Source: Fistulifera solaris | Lineage: Eukaryota | NCBI GenBank assembly: GCA_030295235.1 | Contig: AP026134.1 | Coordinates: 1,054,001 to 1,118,000, forward strand | DNA length: 64,000 bases | Direction of reading: 5' to 3' | Part shown: in pieces, positions 218-34,848 of the stretch | Numbering within the stretch: position 1 is the first letter of the stretch | How the letters are laid out: the number at the start of each line of letters is the position of its first letter | Translations under genes and position numbers: made by a program | Notes under the pieces: generated by a model | What the model saw: the letters and a program-made list of their open reading frames with translations, nothing else | What the model was told of the DNA's origin: nothing | The model's database searches: none

Positions 218-3200
218 TTATTCGCAAACACTACTTTCTACGCCTGCCGCGCTTCGAAGCAATCGCTGCATTTTGGGGGCAATATCGGAGCCAGAAGGAT
301 CGAGAGAACCGAGAACCATGTTTTCGATCCGGGGGTTGCGGAACGAAATACGTTCCAGATCGTCAGACTGATCATCATCAACCAACTCTAATAGTTGCCC
401 GAACACCGTATCAGAAAATACCTTTTCGCGAAGCGTGCTATCAAAAATATCAACTTGCTGATTCAGTAGCCTTCGCCATGCTGCTTCGTTGGATACAATA
501 GATTTGCACCAAACGGATGTAGCTTTCTCTTCCATTTCAGAAATACTTTCAAAAGCTGTTGCGATGGCCAGTCCAATCATGCATGCATGGGCCTTATCGG
601 CCGAGTCATTAACCTGGTCTACTTTTTGCAGAGCAACCTGAAGCAATCGATGCGGTGGCTGAAGTGGATTCTCGGTGTCCCCCATCAGCTCCTTCTGAGC
701 CATAACCAGCTCCCTTTTCTTCTCAATATTGCGATGAAGTTTCATGGATTCATCTGCCTGTACAAGAGACTCCATCATCACAATTCTGTTACTCAGATTG
801 GCAGCACTCAACGTATTTAAGGTGTCCGACAGTGCAGCATTTCCTCCACTGATCTTCTGCAGTAACGAAGCAGTGGCCGAGCTGTAGTCCTTGTTCTGAA
901 TGTCATTTATCCATTTATAGGGAGCAAGGGCTGTCTCATTCTTCATCCAGTGCGCGAGAGCTTTAGGACAGTATTTGCCATACCTCAGCGTATGACCGAA
1001 AAGGCGGCGGTCAATAAACCATTTCAAAACTCCTGATCCAAAGAACAAATTTGTTGTCTTGTCCACTTGTGCAGAATTTGCTTCAAATAAAGGCTCTAAA
1101 GCAAAACTTGCACCATCGCCTCTCTGCTCATGGTCGTAAACAATCTCACATAGTCCATCGATGTAGATATGTGCCACGCACAGTTCGAACAAGAACAGAT
1201 CGTTTTTCCATGTGTTAATGCGGCGTAGTAAGGAGAAGGCCTCTTTCAGTGCTTCGGTGTAAGAAGACCTTGTATCGTCATTCGGAAAAGCCATCAGGTT
1301 ATCCAAGCAAGTTTGAAGCCAAAATTGTACAATGGATTGGGCGACAATAGACGAAGCGACAGAATGAGACCCCCAGAATAATACCTGACGCTTCAGAATA
1401 TTCTGTAACGAAGGGCGACTGGTCCAAACGGGGACATCAGTCAAGGATTGTACCTGAGGAAGCACGTTAGGTGTAACATCGTAGGTCGCGTTCGCACGCT
1501 CGGCACGGAACGCCAATGCTGCATCGATTCCTTCGCAGCACCATCGCAGAAATGATTCTTGCCGATCTTGTCCTCCACCAGTCAAACAAATTTCCTGCAA
1601 CTCCTCAAGCCATTCTGCAACACTACCTGCTCTTAGCTCCTTTATTTGATCTCGTTCCCATCCAATGGTGTGCTTCGAGGCGATCACTTGCAAAGCGCTG
1701 GCTTCTTGTCCCATGGCAAGTAACTGCCAGCGACATAGAGCGGAAAGATCACGATAGCGTGCAGTTTGCTGTAAGAACTCAATAAGCGCAAGATGCAACT
1801 CGACAGGCCGTGATGGCGATGTAATGATTTCCCGCTGTTCTTGCAACAACTGTTTTGAGAAGGACATGACTGCTTGTTCGAGATCACCGACACTCGCATC
1901 GAGAAGTGACGGCGGTAAGCGAGGTACCTGGTCCGGGTGACTATAATTTTCCCAAAAAGCTGCCTTAAGATGCATTTGCAACGTTTTGCCTTGAATTCGG
2001 TTGCCACCAGAAGATGAGCTTTTGATAGTTTCATCGCGCAAGGTAAAGCGTAAACCGATCCCGGTAGCATCCCAAACAATGATGCCGTACTTGACCCAAT
2101 CTTTGGTAAGCGTTTCGGGTAGAATGGTAGCGACTGTTCCAGGAACGTGCACATCCAATTCGTGGACACGATCACCACTCAACGCTAGGACAACGGTAGT
2201 TCGACCTGCTTGTCCCACCCCCAATCGTACTCGTCCAGGATCCACATGGGTCGATACGATGGTGTAGGCAATATTGTTTTCGGCAACTTCCAGTCCAGCA
2301 ACTTGAGCCTCCTGCGCAGGATCCACAAAACGATTGAGCCGTTGCATCACTTGGAGCTCTCCGTCGAGAAATCGAGCCCAATACAAGCGCGAGTTCTCAT
2401 GATCGGAAACCACCAAGAAGAGCATGTGCAACGCCTTTCCTTGATATGCCGCTTGAATGACTTTGAGCATTGAAATTCCGCTCGCGTTTTCTTGCGCCTG
2501 GTAGACGGGCCACAGCTGGAGTACCTCTCGGCATTCGAACAACACGCGGCGGGACTCGGTATGATTCATGGTCCATTCCAAGACAGAACCGTCGGCAAAT
2601 ACAACTTGAAACGTTCGATCGGTACAAGGACACACCGCCACAACCGCTTCCGAGGGTGGCGGCAATGTTGAAGAAGAAGTCCATAACGGAAAGAACGAAG
2701 ATCTCTTCTCCTCTTGTACAAGTTGCGCATGAATACTCATGGGGATGGTAGTCTGTGACACCCAATAGACGTGTCCCTGTGATGTTCCTACCCAAATACG
2801 AGGAGCCTGTCCTGCCGCAACTTGGAGGGTTGTAATAGAATCACCCTCTGGCAAAGGAATCGAAGTATAGGTAGCGGGTTGTTGACGTTGTTTTAAGGAA
2901 CGCGCATCGAGTTGCCACACTAGGAAATCTCCATTATCTTTGTTTACAGCATACACAAAGGCAGCTCGGGGAGATTGTGGGTCGGTGTGTAACTTGACAA
3001 TGGTTTTGTCGTACGCTAGTTTTGGGTGCACTAAAGAAAGGGTAGCCAGAGAGAGCTTTTGATCCCCAAGAGTTGCCTTCGGCGGAGCGTACCAGACTTT
3101 TAATTCCGTAGATAAAACAAGGCAGTTCCAGCGCAATCTTGCAGCTCCTGCAATGTAATAACTGTCCTCGGATAAAATACTTTCCGGCAAAGGGAAACAA

Positions 3201-3409
3201 CATCCATCGACCAAGGCAAATCCGCGGTCGGTGTTTGAATGTTGCGATGGGTTTCTGTTCCCTGCAGCATTCCAGGCGAAGATAGAGCCATTTCTATTCT
3301 TTTTTCGTGCAGCGTTTTTTGTGGGGGAAGGTTTGTTCGACAACGTTATTGACCCCACTGCTATCCTTTCGACCTTCACACCATCATTAAACTCCGTATT
3401 TCTTTTCAT
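218..3409 (-). CDS. NUP133: Nucleoporin Nup133-like (N-terminal beta-propeller, C-terminal helical solenoid)
   Basis: Uninterrupted ORF of about 1060 aa with first ATG at 3409. Beta-rich N-half, then a helical half with YKWINDIQNKDYSSATASL and TLSAANLS segments resembling the Nup133 C-terminus. Confidence 0.6.
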   Translation of the reverse strand: MKRNTEFNDGVKVERIAVGSITLSNKPSPTKNAARKKNRNGSIFAWNAAGNRNPSQHSNTDRGFALVDGCCFPLPESILSEDSYYIAGAARLRWNCLVLSTELKVWYAPPKATLGDQKLSLATLSLVHPKLAYDKTIVKLHTDPQSPRAAFVYAVNKDNGDFLVWQLDARSLKQRQQPATYTSIPLPEGDSITTLQVAAGQAPRIWVGTSQGHVYWVSQTTIPMSIHAQLVQEEKRSSFFPLWTSSSTLPPPSEAVVAVCPCTDRTFQVVFADGSVLEWTMNHTESRRVLFECREVLQLWPVYQAQENASGISMLKVIQAAYQGKALHMLFLVVSDHENSRLYWARFLDGELQVMQRLNRFVDPAQEAQVAGLEVAENNIAYTIVSTHVDPGRVRLGVGQAGRTTVVLALSGDRVHELDVHVPGTVATILPETLTKDWVKYGIIVWDATGIGLRFTLRDETIKSSSSGGNRIQGKTLQMHLKAAFWENYSHPDQVPRLPPSLLDASVGDLEQAVMSFSKQLLQEQREIITSPSRPVELHLALIEFLQQTARYRDLSALCRWQLLAMGQEASALQVIASKHTIGWERDQIKELRAGSVAEWLEELQEICLTGGGQDRQESFLRWCCEGIDAALAFRAERANATYDVTPNVLPQVQSLTDVPVWTSRPSLQNILKRQVLFWGSHSVASSIVAQSIVQFWLQTCLDNLMAFPNDDTRSSYTEALKEAFSLLRRINTWKNDLFLFELCVAHIYIDGLCEIVYDHEQRGDGASFALEPLFEANSAQVDKTTNLFFGSGVLKWFIDRRLFGHTLRYGKYCPKALAHWMKNETALAPYKWINDIQNKDYSSATASLLQKISGGNAALSDTLNTLSAANLSNRIVMMESLVQADESMKLHRNIEKKRELVMAQKELMGDTENPLQPPHRLLQVALQKVDQVNDSADKAHACMIGLAIATAFESISEMEEKATSVWCKSIVSNEAAWRRLLNQQVDIFDSTLREKVFSDTVFGQLLELVDDDQSDDLERISFRNPRIENMVLGSLDPSGSDIAPKMQRLLRSAAGVESSVCE

Positions 3410-3754
3410 GGTGGTCGTTGCTCCAGTGCGTGCTCTTGGCTCGCTTGGATCTGTTTTTTCTCTTAAATTTTCAAGTACCGCAAAGGCTTCCAAGCAACTA
3501 AATACGGTACTGCATTAAGAGCAACACCTGGTAGCAGGTGCGGTACCGGTACCGCACCGGTACCGCATGCGAAAATATGAACTTGCATTTTTATTGAACA
3601 TTCGTTGGCTTTTCTCGTCACGTGCATCAACTTCTTTACCATCATCTAGTCATGAAACTCGACTAATACACGGCTTTTTGTCGTCAAAAATCTGTCTTGA
3701 TCGTGCTTCTCTTGTTGCGTTGAACACTGCTCAGAGAACACAATTCCTGCAAAA

Positions 3755-5233
3755 ATGGCCCTGCGAACGATACTTGCTTATTTGTTGCTGTTCACGCATT
3801 CCTCCACGGCGGGTCCGTTTGGCGTTTCAAACAACAAACAAACTTCTCTTCTAGCAGATTCAAAAACGAATGTACCGCAACCTTCCTTACACGCACCTTT
3901 CTCTGTGGTATCGACCATTGTTTTGACGCAAAGGACGAATGGTGCCGACGGCATTTTGGCTCCAACGACAGTTTCATGGGATATTCAGTCGGGTTGTATG
4001 CTCGTACCGAACGGAGACGCTCGTGAAGCTCCTTTATGGTGTGGACGCGCCCAGTGGTCACCACAAAGTCTGCCGCTCTGGAATACACTGGCGTTACTCA
4101 GCGATTTGCTCGTTGTGGTCGTCGAATCGCCCGACACGACACCCGATCTTCCATCCGACTGTATTCTGGCATTCGTGGATGGCTTGCGACAACGCGTGCA
4201 TGCGGCAGGATTACCGAAGGGAAGATTGATCATACTGCGGAATCATCTGGCGACACCGGAAGAAGTAGCAGAATGGAAGGAACATTTAGACACATCACTG
4301 GGACTTTCTTCTTCCTTGTCAACGGATTTGCTGCAACTTTTCTTTGTTTCCTCGGGAAACTCGTTTCAAGAAGCATTAAAAGATACAACATGGGATGCTG
4401 TGCAAACGCAAGGTGTTTGTGCAATTTTGAGAAATGACGTGGAAGCATTTGCCCCTTTATTGCAGCGAGTCTTTCATTCCAAAGGTGGTCTGCAAGAAGC
4501 GAACGTGTTGGAAAAGCAGGTATCAAGATCACTCTTTCCCCCGAGGTTAATGAAAGAAATTGAACTCACGCCGTTTGATTTGGGAGTGCGCGAAAGTGCT
4601 ATGGCTGCTTTGCAAATAGTACAATCGACACAAGAACAGGCATGTCTCGATTCGGAGAAAAATCTGCTCGATTTTTCGTCTTTGGTAGACCCCCTTTTGG
4701 ATGATTTTGCTCAAAATTTGAATCTACTCTCATCACCACAAGCCCAACGAGTCACTGAAGGGCAAATACGCGAGAGAGTAGTACATCTTTACGAAAAACA
4801 CCTGCAATCGTTAAGGGACTATTTTGGCACGATGTACGAAGATCTACTCGATGAAAACTTACAAAAGCCTGCTCACTGGCCGGAATTTGCCAGAATTGTG
4901 AAGAGCGCTTTCTTAGAACGCGCAACAGATGCTGTTCCACAAAAGGCGCGAGAAAATGGGATCTTCCACTACTGGCAATTGGACTACAGCAAAGCCTCGG
5001 AGGGCCTGTTGCAGGACATGACGGAAATCACAGAATTCAGGAGACAAGATGACGAAGAGCTACTACTCGGAGTAGAACCAGAGGAACGTCGAATTCCAAA
5101 ATGGGCCGAGCAACTTGGTGCCCGAGCGTTAATGTTGGGAGTGAACTACTTGCAAGGATGGCTAGCCTTACAGGGACTTCGACAGGCCGCGTTGGAGCGC
5201 GAGCGAAATTTACCAAAATTTCCATTGTTTTAG
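3755..5233 (+). CDS. Signal-peptide protein with degenerate Sey1/RHD3-like domain
   Basis: 492-aa ORF with a hydrophobic N-terminus (MALRTILAYLLLFTHSSTA). LALLSDLLVVVV and RLIILRNHLATPEE resemble Sey1 strands. No P-loop. Confidence 0.55.
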   Translation: MALRTILAYLLLFTHSSTAGPFGVSNNKQTSLLADSKTNVPQPSLHAPFSVVSTIVLTQRTNGADGILAPTTVSWDIQSGCMLVPNGDAREAPLWCGRAQWSPQSLPLWNTLALLSDLLVVVVESPDTTPDLPSDCILAFVDGLRQRVHAAGLPKGRLIILRNHLATPEEVAEWKEHLDTSLGLSSSLSTDLLQLFFVSSGNSFQEALKDTTWDAVQTQGVCAILRNDVEAFAPLLQRVFHSKGGLQEANVLEKQVSRSLFPPRLMKEIELTPFDLGVRESAMAALQIVQSTQEQACLDSEKNLLDFSSLVDPLLDDFAQNLNLLSSPQAQRVTEGQIRERVVHLYEKHLQSLRDYFGTMYEDLLDENLQKPAHWPEFARIVKSAFLERATDAVPQKARENGIFHYWQLDYSKASEGLLQDMTEITEFRRQDDEELLLGVEPEERRIPKWAEQLGARALMLGVNYLQGWLALQGLRQAALERERNLPKFPLF

Positions 5234-5355
5234 AAACTTTTCTGTTTATTAGCGTATTCCAGTTGTGGAGTGTGAATTACAAATTACATTTACATGGTGT
5301 CACTTAGAGATGCGATACAGCATTGTTGTGAAGAAGCACTACCGATCTTGTCACC

Positions 5356-6476
5356 CTATCTCATCAACAGATCATCACGATCCTCAAATGGCTGGAAAGC
5401 GTAGGATCCAGAAGGATCACGATGATGAATCTGACCTGCCCGAGATGGGGGTTTTACATTCGGCACTTGTTGGGTGTCAGCAATGTTGACTTCGTCCATG
5501 TGCCGGATTTGGCGAGGTCGTTTTTGAGACGACCGAAACTGCTCACTCCTACGCGGACCCGGTGGTATCCAGTAATCAAGAATATTGTAGCCCAAGCAAA
5601 AACAAGCTTCGTGAGCCCCGGTGCTGGGGTCATTCTCTTCCGACAAGGAGTTGTCTGTTTGCGAAAGTCGTCGATCACGCATGTGCTCAGGTCGTCGATC
5701 CGACATCATGGTTCCATTACCAGTACCTCGGCGAGGGTTGGCCATCCTTCGACTGTACGGTCGTTGTTGTGTCTCCACAGTATCATGCGGGGTGACACCG
5801 CAGTCATAAAGAGGGAATTCCGCCTGGCATTTTTCTTCCGCCGGATGTTCATTGGTCGACATGGCCCCTCGGTGAGAATACCTCGATCGAGAGCGCTGAC
5901 TTTCGTGACGAGCTAAATTCTGGGGAAGACAATGAACATCTCCAGCCGATATATTTCCGGTCGAATCCAGTCGATAAATGGTTTGGTCTTTGGTGGTGGG
6001 ACACGAGCTGCTAGTGGCCGTGGCCAGAGTAATATCATCTTTCTCAACAGCATAAGCGAAATCACGAGACTCAGCATGACCGAGCACCATCAACTCTGGT
6101 TTTCGTTCCGGACGAACCTCAAGACCGTGGTCCAGTTTCTCTAATTGAAGCAGCATGGATCGCTGCCAAGGTTGCGTCAAGTCAATGTTGATACCTCGGT
6201 TTTTGACAACGGATGCGTACGAATATCGATTTTTGTTGTGATTCCCATGAGGGGCGGCTGTATAGTCTTTGTGATCCGACTTGCTCTTTTCAAATCGCTT
6301 GGATTGGAATCGGTTGTGTGAAAAGAGGGTTCCTCTTCAAAGGCATCCGTTTCATCTTCCATTGTACCGAGGGCTGTCATGGATGCTGTAGTATCATGAT
6401 CGCTATCGAGACTGTGAATAACAGCATGATCGTCCATTATTTCCATAGAAACAGCTTCTGCACTTGTGTGTTTCAT
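5356..6476 (-). CDS. Hypothetical low-complexity protein (two abutting ORFs, probably one gene with a frameshift near 6200)
   Basis: ORFs 6177..6476 and 5356..6180 overlap on the same strand with similar hydrophilic composition. No recognisable domain. Confidence 0.45.
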
Positions 6477-9872: not shown

Positions 9873-10129
9873 TTGTAACATGTCCGACTATTGCAACATG
9901 TCCGACTATTGCAACATGTCCGACTATTGCAACATGTCCGACTATTGCAACATGTCCGACTATTGCAACATGTCCGACTATTGCAACATGTCCGACTATT
10001 GCAACATGTCCGACTATTGCAACATGTCCGACTATTGCAACATGTCCGACTATTGCAACATGTCCGACTATTGCAACATGTCCGACTATTGCAACATGTC
10101 CGACTATTGCAACATGTCCGACTATTGCA
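9873..10129. repeat. Tandem minisatellite, 18-bp unit TTGCAACATGTCCGACTA, about 14 copies
   Basis: Directly visible. Units are identical except the first (TTGTAAC...). No spacers. Confidence 0.97.
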
Positions 10130-10242
10130 CACTGAATTCACAACTTGAGATGATTAATTTTCTTATTCATTTTATCAAAATCATCATTGTATCGAGGGAT
10201 TTTTATTGCTCTGTTATCTTTTCCACTCCATAATCCACATTC

Positions 10243-10643
10243 ATGCCATTGGTAAAGCTATTTGCTCACAGACATCTTATAAAGGTGGTGCTTTTGGCCA
10301 GCATTCAAAACAAACTTTGTGAAATATGGGGGACCACGCCCAACACAACAAAACTCATGTTGTTCCGCTGTGAAGATTGGACTGACGAAAGTTTTCAGGA
10401 GGATATTTATGTCAATATTTGGGCTTACGGTAAGAGGTGTCTGATTTTGCTCGCAATACAAGTGCTTCAAGGCTCACGAGCTTTGTATTACATTATGTAG
10501 GCAAGCCAGAGCACTCGGAAATGGTTCTGAATGGAATGAAAGATGTTCATAAAGCCTTTCGTGATCACAATTTAATCGCCAACATTCGATTGGAAACATA
10601 CGAAGGCAATCGTTACTTTCATTTACCACCAACTAAAGTCTAG
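10243..10643 (+). CDS. Small Pro-1 tautomerase/MIF-like protein, 109 aa; intron 10430..10500
   Basis: A GTAAG...TAG intron joins ...NIWAYG to KPEHSEMV...RLETYEGNRYFHLPPTKV*. The MP start and size fit the tautomerase/MIF superfamily (inference). Confidence 0.6.
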
Positions 10644-10796
10644 ATTATTGAATGTGTAGGCAACTACTAAAATAACTTTGTTCTAACTGAACAGAACCTA
10701 ACGGAGTAGACGCCTTTGGGACCCCATCAGTCGCATTATTTGAGTCATTCTAGTTGAACAACTTAGGCCAACGGAGATGATACAAATCATTACACA

Positions 10797-13700
10797 TTAA
10801 AGCCGGACCTTCAGATGATCCTTCTTGCTTTTAGAACCAATCTCGCTGCTGTCAGCTCCTTTTGTTTGGGTCTCTACCTCGTTACTCTTCGTCTTTTTAG
10901 GACTTTTCATAGCCTTTTCGGCCTTGGATGACTTCTTTGGACTCTTCGGTGATTTGTCTTCCCCAGCCTTCTTACTCTTCTTTGGAGACTTACGCGATGG
11001 ACTTTTCATGTCTTCTACTTTCTTTTTGCTTTTCGTCGGTGAGTTCAGTGTCTCATCCGTGTTCTCAATCTTAATCTTACTCACTTTCTTAGGCGATTTA
11101 TGAGTCGATGCTTTAGCTGTGTCGCTGCTCTTCTTCAATCTCCGTGGTGACACCAATCCATGATCTTCAAGTGTTCCCTGAGGTTTCTCCCTTGCCTTTT
11201 TCTTTGTTGTCCCTCTTTTGGCCGCCGCCTTACCCTTTACGCGAGCCACCTCTGCTGATGTATCGCTACAAACCGTCTCGCTTGAACTCGGATCTGTATT
11301 GACAATATATGCCGATGCATCCGGTCGTTTTCGTACTCTTCGCGTTTGCTGATCTACACTGTCTTCCGAAGAACTCGAATCTGAAGAGCTTGAATCAAAC
11401 GGTTCAGCAGAGGATGCCATTTTATCGTGACCAGCTGAGCCAATACTATCATTTGAGCTTTCGCTTTTGTCGCCTACGCTATCTTTATCGCTACCACTGC
11501 TGTCGCTGTAGAATGCCTTCTTCTTCAGTGGCTTTGACTGTCTCTGTGCTAACTTGATGGCTTCGGCTTCCTTTTCTTTTTTCCTCAAGGTCTCTTTTTG
11601 CCTCCCGCTTCGCGCCTCTCCCTGGCTTCCTGCAGTCTTGCCACCCTGAGCTTCTTCTTCTCTTCCAAAGTAAGCCCTTCCCTAGATTTCTTTTGTCGTG
11701 CTCTGACTTCTTCTTTTGCGGCTTTGAGTGCAAGTAATGCCTTCTCTTTGCGTTCTCTTGCCTCCAGGATCCATTGCGACACTGGGACACTCGATCCCCC
11801 GTCCTTTTCGTGAGACTTTGCGTCTTCCTTCTTGTAATCTGACAAAGTTGACGCATTTTCGTGCACTGAAACCTTTGAATCTTTTCTAGACTTCTTGTCC
11901 TTGCTCTTCTTTTCCTTCTTCTTGCGACTCTTTTTTTTTTTTGGCTTTTGAATTCGAGCGGCGCATGTTAGCGGAATCGTCTATTCGTTTTCGCGCCTCA
12001 AGAATCCACACCGTTGGGTCAGGTTCTTCTGGTAGACTAATCACCTTGCTCTCGTCTCTTTCTGCACGCTGTTGTCTGTACTTCTTTTCCAGCGCCATGG
12101 CCTTTTGGACAACATATTTAAAGAAATCTGAATCGTCGTGTGCTCTATTGACCTTGACAGCTGAAACACTACCCATGACCTCGGATTTCGATTCGGCGTC
12201 GACGCGCTTGGCTGCTTCAACGAAGGTAGCTCTTCTCGCTCCATCCATTTTATCGTCGTCATCGCTTTCGGATGAGGAGCTATCTTCGTACCATTTCTTC
12301 TTAGAAGCTCTCATGGGATGGAGTTTGCGCGTTTGAAGAAGTTGCTTTCTTTTTCTAGCAGCTTGGATCCAATGAGAAACGTCATCCATTTCGAAGCCGT
12401 CATTGTCAGCCTCCGACTTTGAGCTAAATTTCAGTTGTTCGCGTATGTATTCCCGGCGGAGCTGTTTTGCCTCTTTAACGATTTGTACGTCATCGTTTAT
12501 ATCGGCCTCACCTTCTTCAGCGCCATGATCCCCTGCTTCATTTTTGGCAAACGCCTCCGCTACAATTCGTTTTGCTTCGACTAACCAAACATCTTCATGA
12601 CTATTTTTCTTCCTCCGCTCTGCTTCGTTCACTCCGGCCTTTTGAACCCACATCGATATTTCTCCCTGTGAACGAGTACGTTGACGTAAAGATTCCCGCG
12701 TTGCATCGTCGCTTCGGCACAGTCTAAGCGCTTTCAGTGCAACCTCCTCATCGAGTTCATTATCGCTTAAGCAGCAACTATCTTCCGGTCTTTTGTCTTG
12801 TCCCAACATTGTTTCCTCACGTAATCGCTTTGCTTCATCAACCCAAGCTTGCCTTTCTGGATCGTCGAGGTCGCACCTGCCCTTTGCCTTGATTTTACGG
12901 GCTTCCGCTAACCAGAAAGACCGATCTACATCATCCTCACTGCTGGTGCGCTCATCCTCGTCACGATGCAACGAGGATTTCCTTTGATTATACTTGTTCT
13001 CCAGTTCCATCGCTTTTGTAAGGACATCAGAGTAATAGGAGCTTTCTGAACTCTCTACAACATAAGATTCGGCGTCTACCGCTACTTCTTCGTCTAGATC
13101 TCCCTTGCTTGCTAGTGCTCGTTCTTTCATCAACCGAGCTTCTTCTCGCCATAAGTAAACAGAATCGCTGTCTTCGGAGTCATCAAAATCGTCCGAATCA
13201 CTAGAATCACTGACCAATTCTCGGCTGAGGTTACGACTAGAGTTTCCTTCGTCATTTTCGGCCATGGAGCCATCAATATTCTCATAATCGAAATTGCTGC
13301 TGTCAGCTGCCGCGCTCGAGTTGCTACCAGTGAATGACAAATGCAGTTTCGAACGAGACAACTGCTTGAGTTGCCTCGCCTCAGCGATCCATTTCGTGAT
13401 GTTATCAACATCATCATCCTCTTCAGATTCAGAGTCCGAGTCTTTTTGGTTCGCTAAATGTCTGATATAAGCGCGCCGTAATCGCTTTGCCTGGTCAATA
13501 ATGTCATCGTCTTGATCGCTACCTTCTTCAAGGTCGTCATGTTTCGACACCTCGTCACTAGCAACTTTTTCTCGATGAGCAAGTCTTTGATTTCGCGCCT
13601 CTTCCGCCCATCGATTGTTATCGTCAATGTTCTCCATCGTGTCGTCTTCTGGAACGATTACTAACGAGAATGACGATGCTGATTCTTGCTGCAAACGCTC

Positions 13701-14720
13701 GGAGTTCTCTTCCTTCATACTGTCTTCTAAAAGAAGCGTTTGTCGCTTTAATTCAGTCCTTTCCTTATACCTTTGACGATTCTCATTTTCAACAGCCATG
13801 GTACGGGCTGATTCGACGCACGCAAGGAGACTATCGTCACCTTCTTCCGCCGTCGTCTCTCCTTCACCATGCAAAATATCGTCTACAACTTGCTCGGCAA
13901 GGGTCGCCCATTGCACTGAAATATCTGTTTCGGTGGCCTTTATTTTCGTTTCGACCTCTTTGTCCTGAGCGGTCTGTTCGTGAGGTGGGGGACGAGCTTT
14001 CTGTTCGTAAAGATCCCACGCATCTCGAATATTTACATATTCTTCGCGCTTGTGCCCGTCTTGACGGAATATAGCCAAACGTCTTTCTTTCGAGAGGTCC
14101 GAGACATCGCCATAATCTGGTATCAAGGCGAAGATGGATCGCAAATATCGAGAACGAAGGTCACTAAAGCTTTCTTTCGTATCGTCTTCGGCTTGTTTCA
14201 TCTCTTCGACCGAAGAATAATTGGCCAAGGCATTGACGAAAAGACCGCGCAACTCTGATTCATCACGCGTCCCCACGCTCCCTTGGTTGCTCGACATCTC
14301 CAGCTTACTCATCGGAGGACTTTGAAATCCCTTCATAGGACTTCTGAATCCTTTCATCGGACTGTGATATCCTTTGACCGGGCTTTGCAGAAGACCCATG
14401 CTCGCCATGCTCGCATTCAGATTTCCACTCACATTAAAATCTTCGAGGAGGTTCGGATCGAGACGGTTGACCATATCGGCAGAAACTGTCGTTGCTTTCC
14501 GATTCGTGACAGACTCGGCGCGAGAATACTTGGAAACATCCGTCATCGAGCGATCCAGCTGGCTGACCGACAACTGTTGCTTCTTCTCGTATTCCTTTTG
14601 TTTCCGTGCATTTTCCTGATATTGGAGAAGACGATCTTTCAAAGTTAAGCCACTTTTTGCGAGTCCATGACGCGTGAAGAAATCCTCTATTTCATGAAAA
14701 GAAGAATAAAAAAGTTGTGC
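10797..14720 (-). CDS. Very large acidic/basic low-complexity protein with WxxEA(R/K) repeats and a KSPK tail (ORFs joined across homopolymer shifts at about 11931-11942 and 11575-11610)
   Basis: The 947-aa ORF continues after a shift in the T12 run as KSRKKKEKKSKDKKSRKDSKVSVHENAST, and then into 10797..11588. A splice acceptor (ttttgttaccag) precedes 14720. Confidence 0.6.
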
Positions 14721-30259: not shown

Positions 30260-32459
30260 ATGACGCAACAAGACAACAAACAAGAACTGCAAGATCGCTT
30301 AGACGCGTTGAATGCCCAAATCACCAAGCAGGGCTCGCATGTCCGACAACTCAAGAAAGACGGAATTGCGGATGCCATCGGAGAAGCTGTAGAACAGTTG
30401 CAAGCTTTGAAACTGGAAGCTGCTACTCTGCAGAATAAACTACAAGCGGGCGAAACGCAATTCAATCGCAAGTCATTCGATGATTTGATTTTGCGAAAAA
30501 TGTTTGTCATTCCGAGTTTCGAGATTCACGGTGGTGTCAAAGGTCTGTTTGATTTGGGTCCTCCGGCTTGTGCTCTCAAGGTACGTTTATGATTGTGACG
30601 CTGCTGTAACAAGTACAAGTATCTATATGTTCTCATGCGTACACTTTTCTTTGCCGTAGGCCGCAATGATCGACATGTGGCGCAAACACTTTGTTCTGGC
30701 CGAGAATATGCTGGAAATGGAGTGCACTTGTTTGACTCCACAAGTTGTTCTCAAAACAAGTGGTCACGTTGATCGATTCACGGATCTCATGGTGAAAGAC
30801 CCGGCAACCGGCGAGTGTTTCCGTGCCGATAAGTTGTTGGAAGATGCGATTGATGATTTAATTGAAAAGAACCCCACTATGCCAAATGCCGAAAAGGAAG
30901 AACACTTGAAAATACAACGACAAGCCGATGCTTTCTCGCCTACTGAACTAGACGAGCTTTTGGTCAAATACAATTGCAAGGGACCTTCGGGTGAAGCTTA
31001 TTCTCCCTCATTCCCCTTCAATCTCATGTTTCAAACCAGCATCGGACCGGAAGGTACGTCGGTAGGATACTTGCGACCCGAAACAGCCCAGGGTCTCTTT
31101 GTGAACTTTCGTCGATTGTTGGATTTGAATGCCGGCAAGACACCGTTTGCGGCGGCACAAATTGGTTTGGGATTCCGTAACGAGATTGCACCACGCTCGG
31201 GGCTCTTGCGCGTGCGAGAATTTTGCATGGGCGAGATTGAACACTTTGTCAATCCGAATGATAAGTCGCACCCGAATTTTGCATCCGTGGCTACCAAAGA
31301 ACTCGTCTTGTTTGGTCGTGACGATCAGCTGGGATCGGGTAAAACCAAGACGGTAGCCATTGGAGAAGCTGTTAAGAGTGGCTTGGTAAACAATGAAACT
31401 TTGGGTTATTTCATGGCACGAACGCAACTTTATATGGAAAAGATTGGTATGGATCCGAAGCGTTTGCGTTTCCGTCAGCATTTGACGACCGAAATGGCGC
31501 ATTATGCTACGGATTGTTGGGACTTGGAGATTCAGTCGAGTTATGGTTGGGTCGAGTGCGTGGGCCATGCCGACCGCGCTTGTTACGATCTAGAGGTGCA
31601 CAGTAAAGCGACCAAGACGCCCATGGTGGCTACCGAAAAAGTGGATCCACCTGTCGAGATTGAATATGCCAAGATCAAGTTTGATCGTAAGTTACTCGGT
31701 CAAGCATTCAAGCAAGACCAACGTGTTGTTTCGGGACTTTTGGATGGACTAGCTGAAGATTGGAAGAATTTTGAACCTATTGCCACGGCACTGGAAACCG
31801 ATGGTAAGACGACCTTAGACAACTTTGTGATTACTAAGGAAATGGTTTCGTGGACCAAATCTTCCAAGAAAGTTCACGAAGTGAAATTTACCCCATCTGT
31901 GATCGAACCCTCATTTGGCATGGGCCGAATCTTGTACTCCTTGCTGGAACATTCCTTCTACACGCGCGAAGGAGACGAGCAACGAACGGTGATGCGATTC
32001 AATCCGCAAGTGGCCCCTCAAAAATGTGCTGTGTTCCCTATCAGCAGCAACGCCGAGTGCAATGCGGTTGTTGACGAAATTGCCGCTGACCTTATGGACA
32101 GTGACCTCGCCACACGCGTCGACAAATCGTCCGCCGCTTTGGGTAGACGATATGCGCGCACGGATGAATTGGGTGTCCCTTTCGCTGTCACTGTTGACTT
32201 TGAAACACTAAAGATAACACCATCACGCTTCGAGAGCGTGATTCCATGAAAACAGGTGCGCTTGCCGAAGTCGGAAATCACGCCTTTATTGATGCGTATT
32301 GTACATGGCAAACTTAACTGGGATGCAGTCACAAAGAAGTATCCTTTGGTACAAGTGGATGAAGGTGACGGAGTCGTCGCTGAAAGCACCGAGAAAGGGC
32401 CAACCGTCGTGGAAACAACATCTCGTGGACGATTTAGACGACCTGCCCCCCAGAACTAA
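30260..32459 (+). CDS. GARS: Glycine--tRNA ligase (WHEP + class II catalytic + anticodon domain); intron 30581..30659; frameshift at about 32210
   Basis: Motifs YLRPETAQG, FRNEIAPR..LLRVREF, EPSFGMGR and RRYARTDELG. One extra A restores KDNTITLRERDS. Confidence 0.96.
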
Positions 32460-32520
32460 AAAACGATAGCTTGTTTACGTTGCTAAAGTAACAATGGGTT
32501 TTTCTAGGTCAAAAGTTGTA

Positions 32521-34848
32521 TTACTTAAGAGACTTTAGTGCTGAAAGAATCCTTTCACACACCTGAATGCAATAATCTCTCGTTGCAGTTGTTGGCGAGA
32601 CCATGGCACAAATAATGTTATCGTGTCGAATCACGTTCAAACCACCTCGACGCAGCAAAGCAACCGCCATGTTGGTTCTTTTATACTCATCGTCATACGG
32701 TTCGATTAGAGCTACCTTCATTACGCTCCCAAACGTAGCAACACTTTCGACATGAGGTAGAAGTGAAATTTCAGATACCTGTTTCTCATCAAACGCCATA
32801 AAAGAGCCCGGCTCGTTCTGGATGATGGCTTTACTAGCTTCTAGCTCGTGAACAGTTCGAACACACTCATCTGGCTGTGCTGCATTGAGATGTCCGAACA
32901 GCAACGCTTCGCCTGGTTCGTCACCAAGAAATGTTTCAAAAACTTCGTTTGTTGTCGCAATAGTAGAAGGTGCATCGCCCATTCCACCACCATAGCACAA
33001 AATATCTGCTTTCACCTGAAGCAATCTTTCAGCATTTAGCAGTCCAAAGCGATACATTCCGGACATTCTTTCGTCAAAGATTACAGGGACTCCTCTCGAT
33101 GCGGCCACATCCACCAAAGCGCGCTGCCATAACGGGTCGACAAAATTGCAGACTAGACCAGCCATGACTGGTTCTAGTATGACTCCGCCAATCTTTCGGT
33201 TGACCCCACTGTGTTCGTAGACCAACCACTGCATTTCAATCATTTCTTTGTACTGCGAGTGGAGCTTCCGATGCGAAATGAGTCGTGTGCTGATATCCAT
33301 TATCGAGGGAACACTCTCGAACTCAAACTCAGTTTCAATCTGATACGATCCAGGTATAGATACTTTTAATGTTCCGTCTTTATACGCCCACGTCGGCGTC
33401 TCAAACAAAAGGCTATTAGACGAATACCAAGGATGCTGGTCTTCCACAAATGTTTGGCGAGGTCCTGCTACATTGAGTGCACCTAGCGTATCGCCATGGT
33501 AGCACCCTTCTTGCGCAGCTACCGCCCAATCATATTTTTGCGGATCAGAAACGTCCTTGCGGCGATGATATGTCCGTAGTGCCATGTACAGCGCTACTTC
33601 GACATGATTACCTGCGACATATAAGACCTTATCCGCACCAAGTGAATGGGCTAATGCCAAGCCAGGCGAGGTAACAACCGGATTCAAATCAAGACGCCCG
33701 TAGCGACCGAGTGCTGCCAAGGTTGCAAGATTTTGTGTTGACTCTGCATGCCCTAATATTGTGGAAGCAACGCTCATATCGTCAGATTGAACGCATTCAA
33801 GCGTGGCTCCTCCTTCGCTAAATTCCAAAAGATGGTGCCGATTCTTCGTCGCGCTATTCACGATGGCGACCTCGCTTTGCTTTATATTCTTGTGTTGAAT
33901 GTTGGGATACCATAGGACACTGCTAGCATCTCTGGGCATGGATCGCCAGTCGTGCACTTGTCCTTCGTGCCAGTTTTGCAGATATTCATCCAGTTCTGAA
34001 AATTTTGCGCTGGTGGATTCGTACCACTCGAAGAGAGGTACTTCTGGATCTTTAGGAATGGGAGGCAACGAAATAATAGACTGCAATGGTAAAGGAAATA
34101 GCCTTTCTCCGGTACCTGATCGAAATGGTAATGCCTTTCGCTCCGCTAAAGCTCGAATAGCGGACACATTGTCGTAACCATTTTCCAAAAGAACTAAAGC
34201 AGCAACATCATATCCACGAGCAATCACCACCTCTAGAGCCGCTAAAGTAGCACTGATCCCACCCAGACGACCATCACCTACTAGAACAACAGGGGCTACT
34301 CCAGTTAGCTCCTGATACAGATCGGCCTGAGGGATCCAGCCCCACTGATTTTTTGTCAATGCATGACGAGGTGAACAATTTTCCGGTGACGCGGAAGCTG
34401 GACTCAAAGCTCCCCCAGCTGTTTCAATGTAGGATGTGAGATGATCATACTGTTGCTGTTGCTGCTGTAGTGCTTCCGTCAGAGCCGAGAGTATCTGTGC
34501 ATCACCGACTGGCTTGTTTTCCCGAGTGCAAGCCGTGTGAGGCGACGCGGGTGTATCCCACGAAAAAAGCGTTTGAGCCGTCAATTGACTTTTGTCTTTC
34601 ACATGGCGCTCCACAAAATCCTGATCACTTCCTCCACATTGCAGCGGTTTAATGTAATGCACTGGGCGTTGCTTTAAACTAGCCTGAACGAGCCCCGCCG
34701 AAATCACTGTTTTGCCGACATCTGTATTCGCACCAAAGATTATGTTCGTCCTCTGTTTCGGGGTTATTCGCCACCTCGACGAAGGGGCAACAGACGAAAA
34801 GAGTCGCTTTTGGAATAAGAAAGCGCGATAAACGAGAGTTGGGCTCAT
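32521..34848 (-). CDS. BIO3-BIO1: Dethiobiotin synthetase / DAPA aminotransferase fusion (BIO3-BIO1); aminotransferase half degenerate
   Basis: BioD motifs GANTDVGKT, YIKPLQCG, ETAGG and GDGRLGGIS. BioA-like YHGDTLGA, ILEP and VIFDE are present, but the PLP lysine is absent. Mitochondrial-type N-terminus. Confidence 0.85.
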   Translation of the reverse strand: MSPTLVYRAFLFQKRLFSSVAPSSRWRITPKQRTNIIFGANTDVGKTVISAGLVQASLKQRPVHYIKPLQCGGSDQDFVERHVKDKSQLTAQTLFSWDTPASPHTACTRENKPVGDAQILSALTEALQQQQQQYDHLTSYIETAGGALSPASASPENCSPRHALTKNQWGWIPQADLYQELTGVAPVVLVGDGRLGGISATLAALEVVIARGYDVAALVLLENGYDNVSAIRALAERKALPFRSGTGERLFPLPLQSIISLPPIPKDPEVPLFEWYESTSAKFSELDEYLQNWHEGQVHDWRSMPRDASSVLWYPNIQHKNIKQSEVAIVNSATKNRHHLLEFSEGGATLECVQSDDMSVASTILGHAESTQNLATLAALGRYGRLDLNPVVTSPGLALAHSLGADKVLYVAGNHVEVALYMALRTYHRRKDVSDPQKYDWAVAAQEGCYHGDTLGALNVAGPRQTFVEDQHPWYSSNSLLFETPTWAYKDGTLKVSIPGSYQIETEFEFESVPSIMDISTRLISHRKLHSQYKEMIEMQWLVYEHSGVNRKIGGVILEPVMAGLVCNFVDPLWQRALVDVAASRGVPVIFDERMSGMYRFGLLNAERLLQVKADILCYGGGMGDAPSTIATTNEVFETFLGDEPGEALLFGHLNAAQPDECVRTVHELEASKAIIQNEPGSFMAFDEKQVSEISLLPHVESVATFGSVMKVALIEPYDDEYKRTNMAVALLRRGGLNVIRHDNIICAMVSPTTATRDYCIQVCERILSALKSLK

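Follow-up and report, generated by a model that had tools for sequence, protein, structure and literature searches.

A decayed aminotransferase half in a BIO3-BIO1-type fusion gene of the diatom Fistulifera solaris

Results

Locus and identity of the fusion gene

The analyzed window, a stretch of 64,000 nucleotides of Fistulifera solaris (contig AP026134.1 of assembly GCA_030295235.1, positions 1,054,001 to 1,118,000), carries a BIO3-BIO1-type fusion gene at 32521..34848 on the reverse strand. A dethiobiotin synthetase (DTBS) half with its motifs in place is followed by a half resembling 7,8-diaminopelargonate (DAPA) aminotransferase, in which the catalytic apparatus has been lost. The open reading frame (ORF) is nevertheless unbroken over 775 aa plus stop, as an earlier note made from the sequence alone had pointed out. 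All parts of the gene described below lie on the reverse strand. Pfam places AAA_26 (DTBS family) at residues 34-151 and Aminotran_3 at residues 511-771. The order of a DTBS domain and then a class-III aminotransferase domain in a single polypeptide is recovered alike by Pfam, by a full-length alignment and by a fold match. The closest solved relative is BIO3-BIO1 of Arabidopsis (4a0f/4a0g, E 4e-71 over residues 80-770).

The two halves are joined by a long helix (aa 273-311; 33916..34032), which is helical in the AlphaFold2 model and aligns to the Arabidopsis linker. The N-terminal 29 residues (34762..34848) are rich in Arg and Ser, contain no acidic residues and have a predicted local distance difference test score (pLDDT) below 50 at residues 1-23. 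By analogy with plant BIO3-BIO1, this segment may act as a mitochondrial-type presequence.

An identical copy of the 775-aa protein exists in a public protein collection, within the same 90% cluster as a named F. solaris protein. In the read contigs of run X1 this region exists in two versions: the first equals the window, the second differs from it by about 6%. The sole listed amino-acid change between them, T756S, is also the difference to the named F. solaris protein P0002. Because X1 shows two versions and T756S matches P0002, the window gene is very probably one of two homeologs of F. solaris, with P0002 as the other. An excerpt of one report describes the F. solaris genome as allodiploid (PMC13276009).

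Loss of catalytic motifs in the aminotransferase half

The decayed aminotransferase half spans aa 300-775 (32524..33951). Alignments including the Arabidopsis protein reveal a four-residue deletion in the former loop of the pyridoxal phosphate (PLP) lysine, ADILCYGGGMGDAPSTIAT (aa 614-632; 32953..33009), which takes out the Lys itself. Within this loop, ADILCYGGGMG (aa 614-624; 32977-33009) aligns to Arabidopsis PDIACFAKLLTGGM with a four-residue gap at the Lys. WWPFTQH is replaced by WYPNIQH (33892..33912), HGHSY by FGHLN (32884..32898) and FDACASWWTQG by DDMSVAST (33760..33783), where both Trp are deleted (SV--AST against ASWWTQG). Further losses affect DGST, reduced to A-G-N, and the GGM following the EP motif, reduced to -VC. 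Opposite the RPLGN Arg stands I740, and because R741 follows at the next position, the loss of this Arg is ambiguous. Retained motifs include YHGDT (33487..33501) and FDE (33070..33078). Together with EP they represent the PLP ring contacts, and they are kept in all five close sequences (P0001-P0005). The earlier note had listed the motif changes as well as the survival of YHGDT and FDE, and the alignments contain all of them. Its Lys-less motif was correctly recognized, with coordinates (32981-33010) that were up to 4 nt off.

The column of the Lys is occupied by Gly in P0001-P0005, and 10 of the 73 rows of the full-length alignment have no Lys there. No Lys occurs in the loop across the five-sequence alignment, and P0005 has Thr in place of the nearby K613. 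At columns invariant among canonical proteins, Lys was gained only at K335 (four of the five sequences) and at K407, a conservative change from Arg. A canonical reference of 48 rows, covering diatoms, oomycetes, other stramenopiles, plants and fungi, yields 124 columns with an identity of 95% or more. The window protein keeps 34/36 of these near-invariant columns in the DTBS half and 46/88 in the aminotransferase half (Fisher p 2.8e-6), so the contrast between an intact BioD half and an eroded BioA half drawn by the earlier note stands. Profile scores point the same way, with 57.9 bits for Aminotran_3 against 152 for the canonical diatom protein P0006, and 85.5 bits for NCBIfam bioA against 271.6 bits.

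Roles of the lost residues are those assigned in BioA of E. coli and M. tuberculosis. We take DGST to be the PLP-phosphate loop, with the Ser/Thr of HGHSY presumably also binding the phosphate. The Lys of AKLLTGG is presumably the Schiff-base Lys, and the Trp pair and the RPLGN Arg are assumed to bind substrate. The Asp of FDE, which is kept, presumably contacts the PLP pyridine nitrogen in active relatives. Judged by its sequence, the aminotransferase half is a pseudo-enzyme that would neither form a Schiff base with PLP nor hold 7-keto-8-aminopelargonate (KAPA) and S-adenosylmethionine.

The DTBS half

The DTBS half (aa 30-295; 33964..34761) is supported by AAA_26, NCBIfam bioD and a motif alignment to E. 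coli DTBS. It contains the P-loop GANTDVGKT (34708-34734), KPLQCG (34633-34650), ETAGG (34411-34425) and RLGGIS (34252-34269). The P-loop, KP..G, PxSPH and E.AGG align to E. coli DTBS (1dts/1a82). Residues K46, T47, K67, P68, G72, D75, E142, A144-G146 and L195-I198 are all present and are invariant or nearly so in 72-73 rows. The half reaches 64.6 bits on NCBIfam bioD (cut-off 83.3), and the decayed fusions P0016 and P0009 reach 50.4 and 46.8. Its pLDDT exceeds 90 throughout the AlphaFold2 model. Identity to canonical diatom DTBS halves amounts to 59-62%, compared to 62-90% among canonical pairs and 62-64% among the more distant of these. The DTBS half changes at a normal rate, nothing suggests an altered chemistry or substrate, and it is probably still an active enzyme.

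Sequence accuracy

The changes in the aminotransferase half consist of in-frame substitutions and one 12-nt deletion. The earlier note had argued that such changes cannot stem from homopolymer errors and had counted a Lys codon restored in raw reads as a refutation. X1 contigs, which are possibly the assembly's own data, show 0 differences over 32780-33030 and agree with the Lys-less sequence, and the indels listed all fall outside the ORF. The stronger argument is recurrence: the Lys-less state and the in-frame changes are common to the homeolog P0002 and to three relatives from other sources, P0003 (89% identity), P0004 (82%) and P0005 (81%).

Maintenance of the aminotransferase half

Stops, frameshifts and gene-wide neutral substitution, the marks of a unitary pseudogene, are absent, and the ORF is open in both homeologs and in three relatives. 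The frame is full-length in P0001, P0002, P0004 and P0005; P0003 (728 aa) is cut at the N-terminus and unbroken across the aminotransferase half. Within the clade, identity is 89-94% in the DTBS half and 77-93% in the aminotransferase half. Canonical pairs of similar distance behave differently, and the aminotransferase half is the better conserved one in 8/11 of these (e.g., 81.5 vs 71.4%). Taken together, the sequences suggest that the dead half has accelerated and yet stays far from evolving freely.

Conservation is distributed unevenly along the dead half, where 313/476 positions are invariant among the five relatives. Conserved islands with 2, 1 and 1 variable sites occupy the 25-residue windows 426-450, 526-550 and 576-600, and the most variable windows, 326-350, 601-625 and 651-675, contain 13, 12 and 13 variable sites. 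In the former Lys loop (619-632), 3/14 positions are invariant. Differences between the homeologs are mostly silent, as 14/15 nucleotide differences listed inside the ORF leave the amino acid unchanged, although synonymous sites have a share of just 0.23, in a sample that comprises the 15 best-supported differences from two short stretches, with 107 more unlisted. Within codons 697-756 of the dead half, 8/9 of the listed differences are synonymous. Codons 607-690 are near free drift, with a homeolog contig carrying 14 nucleotide differences and the proteins differing at 8 residues. In this small and local sample, the dead half resembles a mosaic of a constrained core and released active-site loops. 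A metagenome scan for the DNA of close relatives returned one locus only, at 37% identity and too distant for a codon test. The proposal of the earlier note that a pseudo-enzyme half is still being maintained is supported by the loss of the catalytic Lys and of most contacts to substrate and cofactor, the five open frames, the mostly synonymous sample, the predicted fold and dimer and the normal rate of the DTBS half.

Predicted structure and homodimer

The AlphaFold2 model, based on the 73-row alignment, has a mean pLDDT of 83 and a predicted template modeling score of 0.76. Apart from the N-terminal segment, pLDDT drops below 50 at residues 336-338 and 465-468 and in two former active-site loops, that of SWWTQG (354-369) and that of the Lys (622-624). 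The top Foldseek match is Arabidopsis 4a0g (E 1.8e-53); bacterial BioA structures come next, at template modeling (TM) scores of about 0.7, including M. tuberculosis BioA at 0.72 (target-length normalized). The class-III aminotransferase fold is hence predicted to be retained in the dead half.

Two copies of residues 296-775 are predicted to pair with a score of 0.81, the best of 3 controls scoring 0.01. The mark used for pairing was reached by 21/30 proteins solved as one-chain pairs and by 0/23 solved as single chains; for eukaryotes the figure was 17/29, and only 1/7 among those without an older solved relative. Dimer runs share at least 50% of contacts, and the partner pLDDT is at least 74. 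Dimers of BioA and BIO3-BIO1 have been solved, so the prediction may reflect these known structures and speaks for likeness only, not for binding. The predicted interface includes residues 412-428, 433-441, 452-459, 464-478 and 644-654. Among interface pairs, the lowest expected error is found where 454-456 faces 454-456 on the two-fold axis. YHGDT is located on this axis, and such a position in the predicted dimer would explain why the motif survives in a dead site.

Graded decay across diatom sequences

The full-length alignment holds 14 further rows that keep the Lys (YSKLLTGG) but are without WWPFTQH and HGHSY, in addition to the 10 Lys-less rows. In the full-length tree, these 24/73 rows group together with an SH-aLRT of 100, and their clade lies among pennate-type diatom sequences of the canonical form. 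Scores on Aminotran_3 follow a gradient of 152 (canonical P0006), 110, 100, 80, 58 (this gene), 22 and none. In the most eroded proteins, nothing but blocks such as LYSQYKELIEMQWLVYEHSG and DPLWQRAL survives. In contrast to this erosion, the other scored decayed rows keep 35-36/36 of the near-invariant DTBS columns. The window gene is, on these sequences, one stage of a graded decay across many diatom sequences rather than a one-gene oddity, an aspect that the earlier note had missed.

Within this range, P0016, P0018, P0032, P0033, P0038 and others (14/73 rows) keep the Lys, YHGDT and the DE of FDE, and have HGHSY replaced, e.g., by NGNTY. This subgroup could still be catalytically active, as aminotransferases that act on a different substrate. 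P0076 (948 aa) has an N-terminal TPR region ahead of the DTBS half and an unrecognizable aminotransferase remnant behind it. On the metagenome contig L001, a stand-alone DTBS gene of 334 aa (3151-4155) ends just past the linker and is followed by a Methyltransf_16 (lysine methyltransferase-like) gene at 4655-5650. No aminotransferase remnant was found within 10 kb downstream of this DTBS gene.

Searches for a second BioA and a source of DAPA

No second copy lies within the 64-kb window. Protein searches, in which organism names attach to cluster representatives only, returned the decayed homeolog as the sole F. solaris name, both among the best 120 of 2209 matches of a canonical Mayamaea protein (at 43% identity) and among the best 120 of 253 matches of the window protein. 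In a search limited to BioA-like proteins below 470 aa, none of the 120 best of 2166 matches was named F. solaris, a weak result given a list dominated by fragments. Of 20 clusters opened (10 canonical and 10 decayed representatives), the canonical pennate-type ones had no NCBI-sourced member and the decayed ones carried no organism names, and no canonical F. solaris copy was revealed by this search of protein clusters rather than of the complete genome. Given its absence from named proteins and from the opened clusters, an annotated canonical copy in F. solaris is unlikely. An unannotated copy, a bacterial-type BioA or a non-homologous enzyme may be the source of DAPA. Aminotransferase-only proteins of 504-590 aa were considered as stand-alone partners and rejected, as they start inside the linker or the DTBS end and thus look like gene models cut at the 5' end. 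Named genomes showed one form each, canonical in Mayamaea and Epithemia and decayed in Fistulifera. Such a pattern fits both reciprocal loss after duplication and lineage-wide replacement.

The available sections of several papers provide context on biotin supply. The algal pathway is given as BIOF, BIO1-BIO3 and BIO2 (PMC12458973), and an araphid diatom with a complete biotin pathway is mentioned (PMC7287063). About 90% of eukaryotic phytoplankton are stated to be biotin prototrophs in culture, and dethiobiotin is reported from seawater at concentrations similar to biotin (PMC9561691). Diatom isolates of an F. solaris outdoor-cultivation study were, in the section available, grown in biotin-containing f/2 medium (PMC5408240). 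Routine culture is uninformative on biotin need because this medium contains biotin. Cyanobacteria are said, in part of a further paper, to use 'either BioU or BioA' for the step from KAPA to DAPA (PMC12903740). An enzyme without relation to BioA can thus supply DTBS with DAPA, and in this way the intact DTBS half might still operate in F. solaris, which serves as a lead only, with no BioU search made here.

Neighboring gene and window composition

Downstream of the fusion gene, a glycyl-tRNA-synthetase-like gene has its 3' end at 32200-32460 on the forward strand, with ORFs at 30260-30592 and 30666-32249. Contigs of X1, X4 and X5 all omit one base at 32249 and all add one at 32208 or 32209. 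X4 and X5, which are presumably RNA, reach 32000-32499 only, the end of this neighboring gene and outside the fusion ORF, and run X3 contributed a single 213-base contig of low, uninformative depth. The corrected frame would read through ...TLRERDSM... and on into the ORF ending at 32459, which suggests that an indel error in the assembly produced the annotated stop at 32249. If so, the convergent genes end about 60 bp apart. Elsewhere in the window, positions 10001-14000 stand out by an AT skew of -0.25 and -0.24 and a GC skew of -0.15 and -0.17, with the rest near 0.

Discussion

The fusion gene of F. solaris combines a DTBS half that probably works with an aminotransferase half that is most likely dead. 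We consider it reasonably probable that the dead half has been kept as a scaffold, a role suggested by its conservation together with its predicted fold and dimerization. The DTBS half would close the ureido ring of 7,8-diaminopelargonate with ATP and CO2. The dead half would keep its class-III fold and form the core of a homodimer, and together with the long linker helix it might hold a pair of DTBS domains in place, as is the case in Arabidopsis BIO3-BIO1. Former active-site loops could then drift freely, with the core and the dimer-contact helices remaining under purifying selection. The state would be an old one, common to both F. solaris homeologs and to relatives inside a pennate-type group of probably single origin. 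Across this group, decay might have proceeded from proteins that kept the Lys with changed substrate residues, to proteins without the Lys, and on to proteins in which the half is unrecognizable or absent.

Several observations weigh against a maintained scaffold of single origin. Interface residues of the predicted dimer are not significantly more conserved than other residues (37/49 vs 276/427 invariant, p 0.15), and the DTBS-only relatives on L001 weaken the idea of an obligatory scaffold. The excess of synonymous homeolog differences derives from the small set of listed sites. A DTBS without a source of DAPA would make no sense for biotin synthesis, and no source was found among the proteins searched. 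The phylogenetic argument is mixed. Common decay could draw rows together artificially, and for this reason a tree was built from DTBS columns of 72 rows, including still more decayed proteins. Left free, the DTBS-only tree is too poorly resolved to demonstrate one origin by itself; it does not unite the decayed rows and requires 9 state changes, of which the starred branches force at least 2. With the 32 decayed rows held together, the likelihood is 22 units above the free search with p-AU 0.815, for a group that was named after the first tree had been seen. One origin of the decayed group is compatible with, and mildly favored by, the DTBS half.

The strongest competing explanation is a neo-functionalized paralog. 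The whole protein would have left biotin synthesis, with the DTBS-like half performing another ATP-dependent job and the remnant binding a ligand or acting as a regulatory module. Biotin would be made by canonical BIO3-BIO1 in the species that have it, and F. solaris would be a plain auxotroph. The decayed sequences do form one old clade beside canonical pennate-type ones, as an ancient duplication would produce. An altered specificity is also conceivable for the 14/24 clade rows that keep the Lys with WWPFTQH and HGHSY changed, and the TPR region added to P0076 is in line with a new role. Both the lack of a canonical copy among named F. solaris proteins and the cultivation of F. solaris in f/2, as given in the cited excerpt, are compatible with auxotrophy. 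However, the near-complete retention of near-invariant DTBS columns in this protein and in other decayed rows provides no sign of an altered pocket, and the DTBS half evolves at the rate of canonical ones. Furthermore, none of the named genomes showed both forms. We regard such a paralog as unlikely.

Two further explanations are far less probable than a paralog. Catalysis by unconventional means, for instance through another lysine or free PLP or pyridoxamine phosphate, would be consistent with the survival of YHGDT, the EP motif and the FDE Asp and with the predicted fold. Besides the Lys, however, the half has lost DGST, the Ser/Thr of HGHSY and both Trp of SWW, the expected Lys loop varies among close relatives, and Lys gains at canonical-invariant columns are limited to K335 and K407. 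The conservation of YHGDT is accounted for by the predicted dimer axis, and we judge residual catalysis to be very improbable. Equally slim are the prospects of a gene on its way to loss, with both halves functionless and the open frame a leftover. Such decay would match the faster evolution of the aminotransferase half and the existence of relatives in which this half is unrecognizable or absent. It is contradicted by a frame open in five lineages down to 81% identity, by the synonymous bias of the sampled homeolog differences and by the retained DTBS positions. The Lys-less state is also common to P0009, which is 58% identical in the DTBS half, and this implies long persistence. A sequencing or assembly artefact, in which homopolymer errors produced the odd motifs, would be in line with the indel disagreements between assembly and read contigs in the neighboring gene just downstream. 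It can be dismissed, as the frame-preserving changes of the ORF match X1 and recur in independent relatives.

A working DTBS on a retained scaffold would need DAPA from elsewhere. From the dead half the earlier note had drawn either a split-function paralog pair or a dependence on external DAPA or dethiobiotin, and either may apply. Tentatively, a large and old pennate group including F. solaris might be without any BioA-type enzyme, and obtain DAPA from an undescribed non-BioA enzyme or a biotin intermediate from bacteria. Should this hold, calls of biotin prototrophy from gene presence would be wrong for such diatoms, the gene being annotated as an active aminotransferase, with a database name that promises more than the alga is able to synthesize. 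Genome surveys infer vitamin self-sufficiency from the genes they find. Should the decayed form be the sole copy in many pennates, such surveys overestimate biotin autonomy, and either a missing enzyme or a link of bacterial cross-feeding would be implied. Lipid synthesis starts with acetyl-CoA carboxylase, which needs biotin as its cofactor, and F. solaris has drawn interest as an oil producer. The graded series also offers a natural experiment on why a fused domain stays once its chemistry is gone.

Bifunctional enzymes with one dead domain are a known kind. The Arabidopsis proteins RIBA2 and RIBA3 are described, in part of one paper, as bifunctional riboflavin enzymes that have lost one fused activity (PMC3509567), and they share with the diatom protein the retention of an inactive domain in a fused two-enzyme protein. 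They differ in pathway and folds, as far as that part of the source goes, and in having an active paralog, RIBA1, in the same genome, of which no counterpart was found here. The case of BIO3-BIO1 appears to be undescribed as far as searched: no description of a decayed form was found in literature on diatom biotin and dethiobiotin synthesis, F. solaris and pseudoenzymes, judged largely by titles and abstracts, and the F. solaris papers examined mention biotin only as a reagent of media or libraries.

The plant enzyme itself is the closest architectural parallel. Arabidopsis BIO3-BIO1 (4a0f, 4a0g, 4a0h, 4a0r) has the same domain order, long linker helix and DTBS motifs and provides the best match in sequence and fold, and the diatom protein is predicted to dimerize through its aminotransferase half. 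A structure paper of 2012 reportedly described the dimer architecture and substrate channeling of the plant protein. Overall identity is about 27-30%, and the plant enzyme has the AKLLTGG Lys, WWPFTQH, SWWTQG and HGHSY, whereas the diatom protein is without all four. Canonical proteins of Mayamaea pseudoterrestris (P0017), Epithemia (P0035) and Chaetoceros tenuissimus (P0170) share the fusion, with DTBS halves 59-62% identical to that of the window protein, and the block LxSQYKEMIEMQWLVYEHSG is conserved with canonical diatom and stramenopile BIO3-BIO1. The canonical forms keep 87-88/88 of the near-invariant aminotransferase columns, compared to 46 in the window protein. The aminotransferase half is the better conserved part of canonical pairs and the worse conserved part of the clade to which the F. 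solaris gene belongs.

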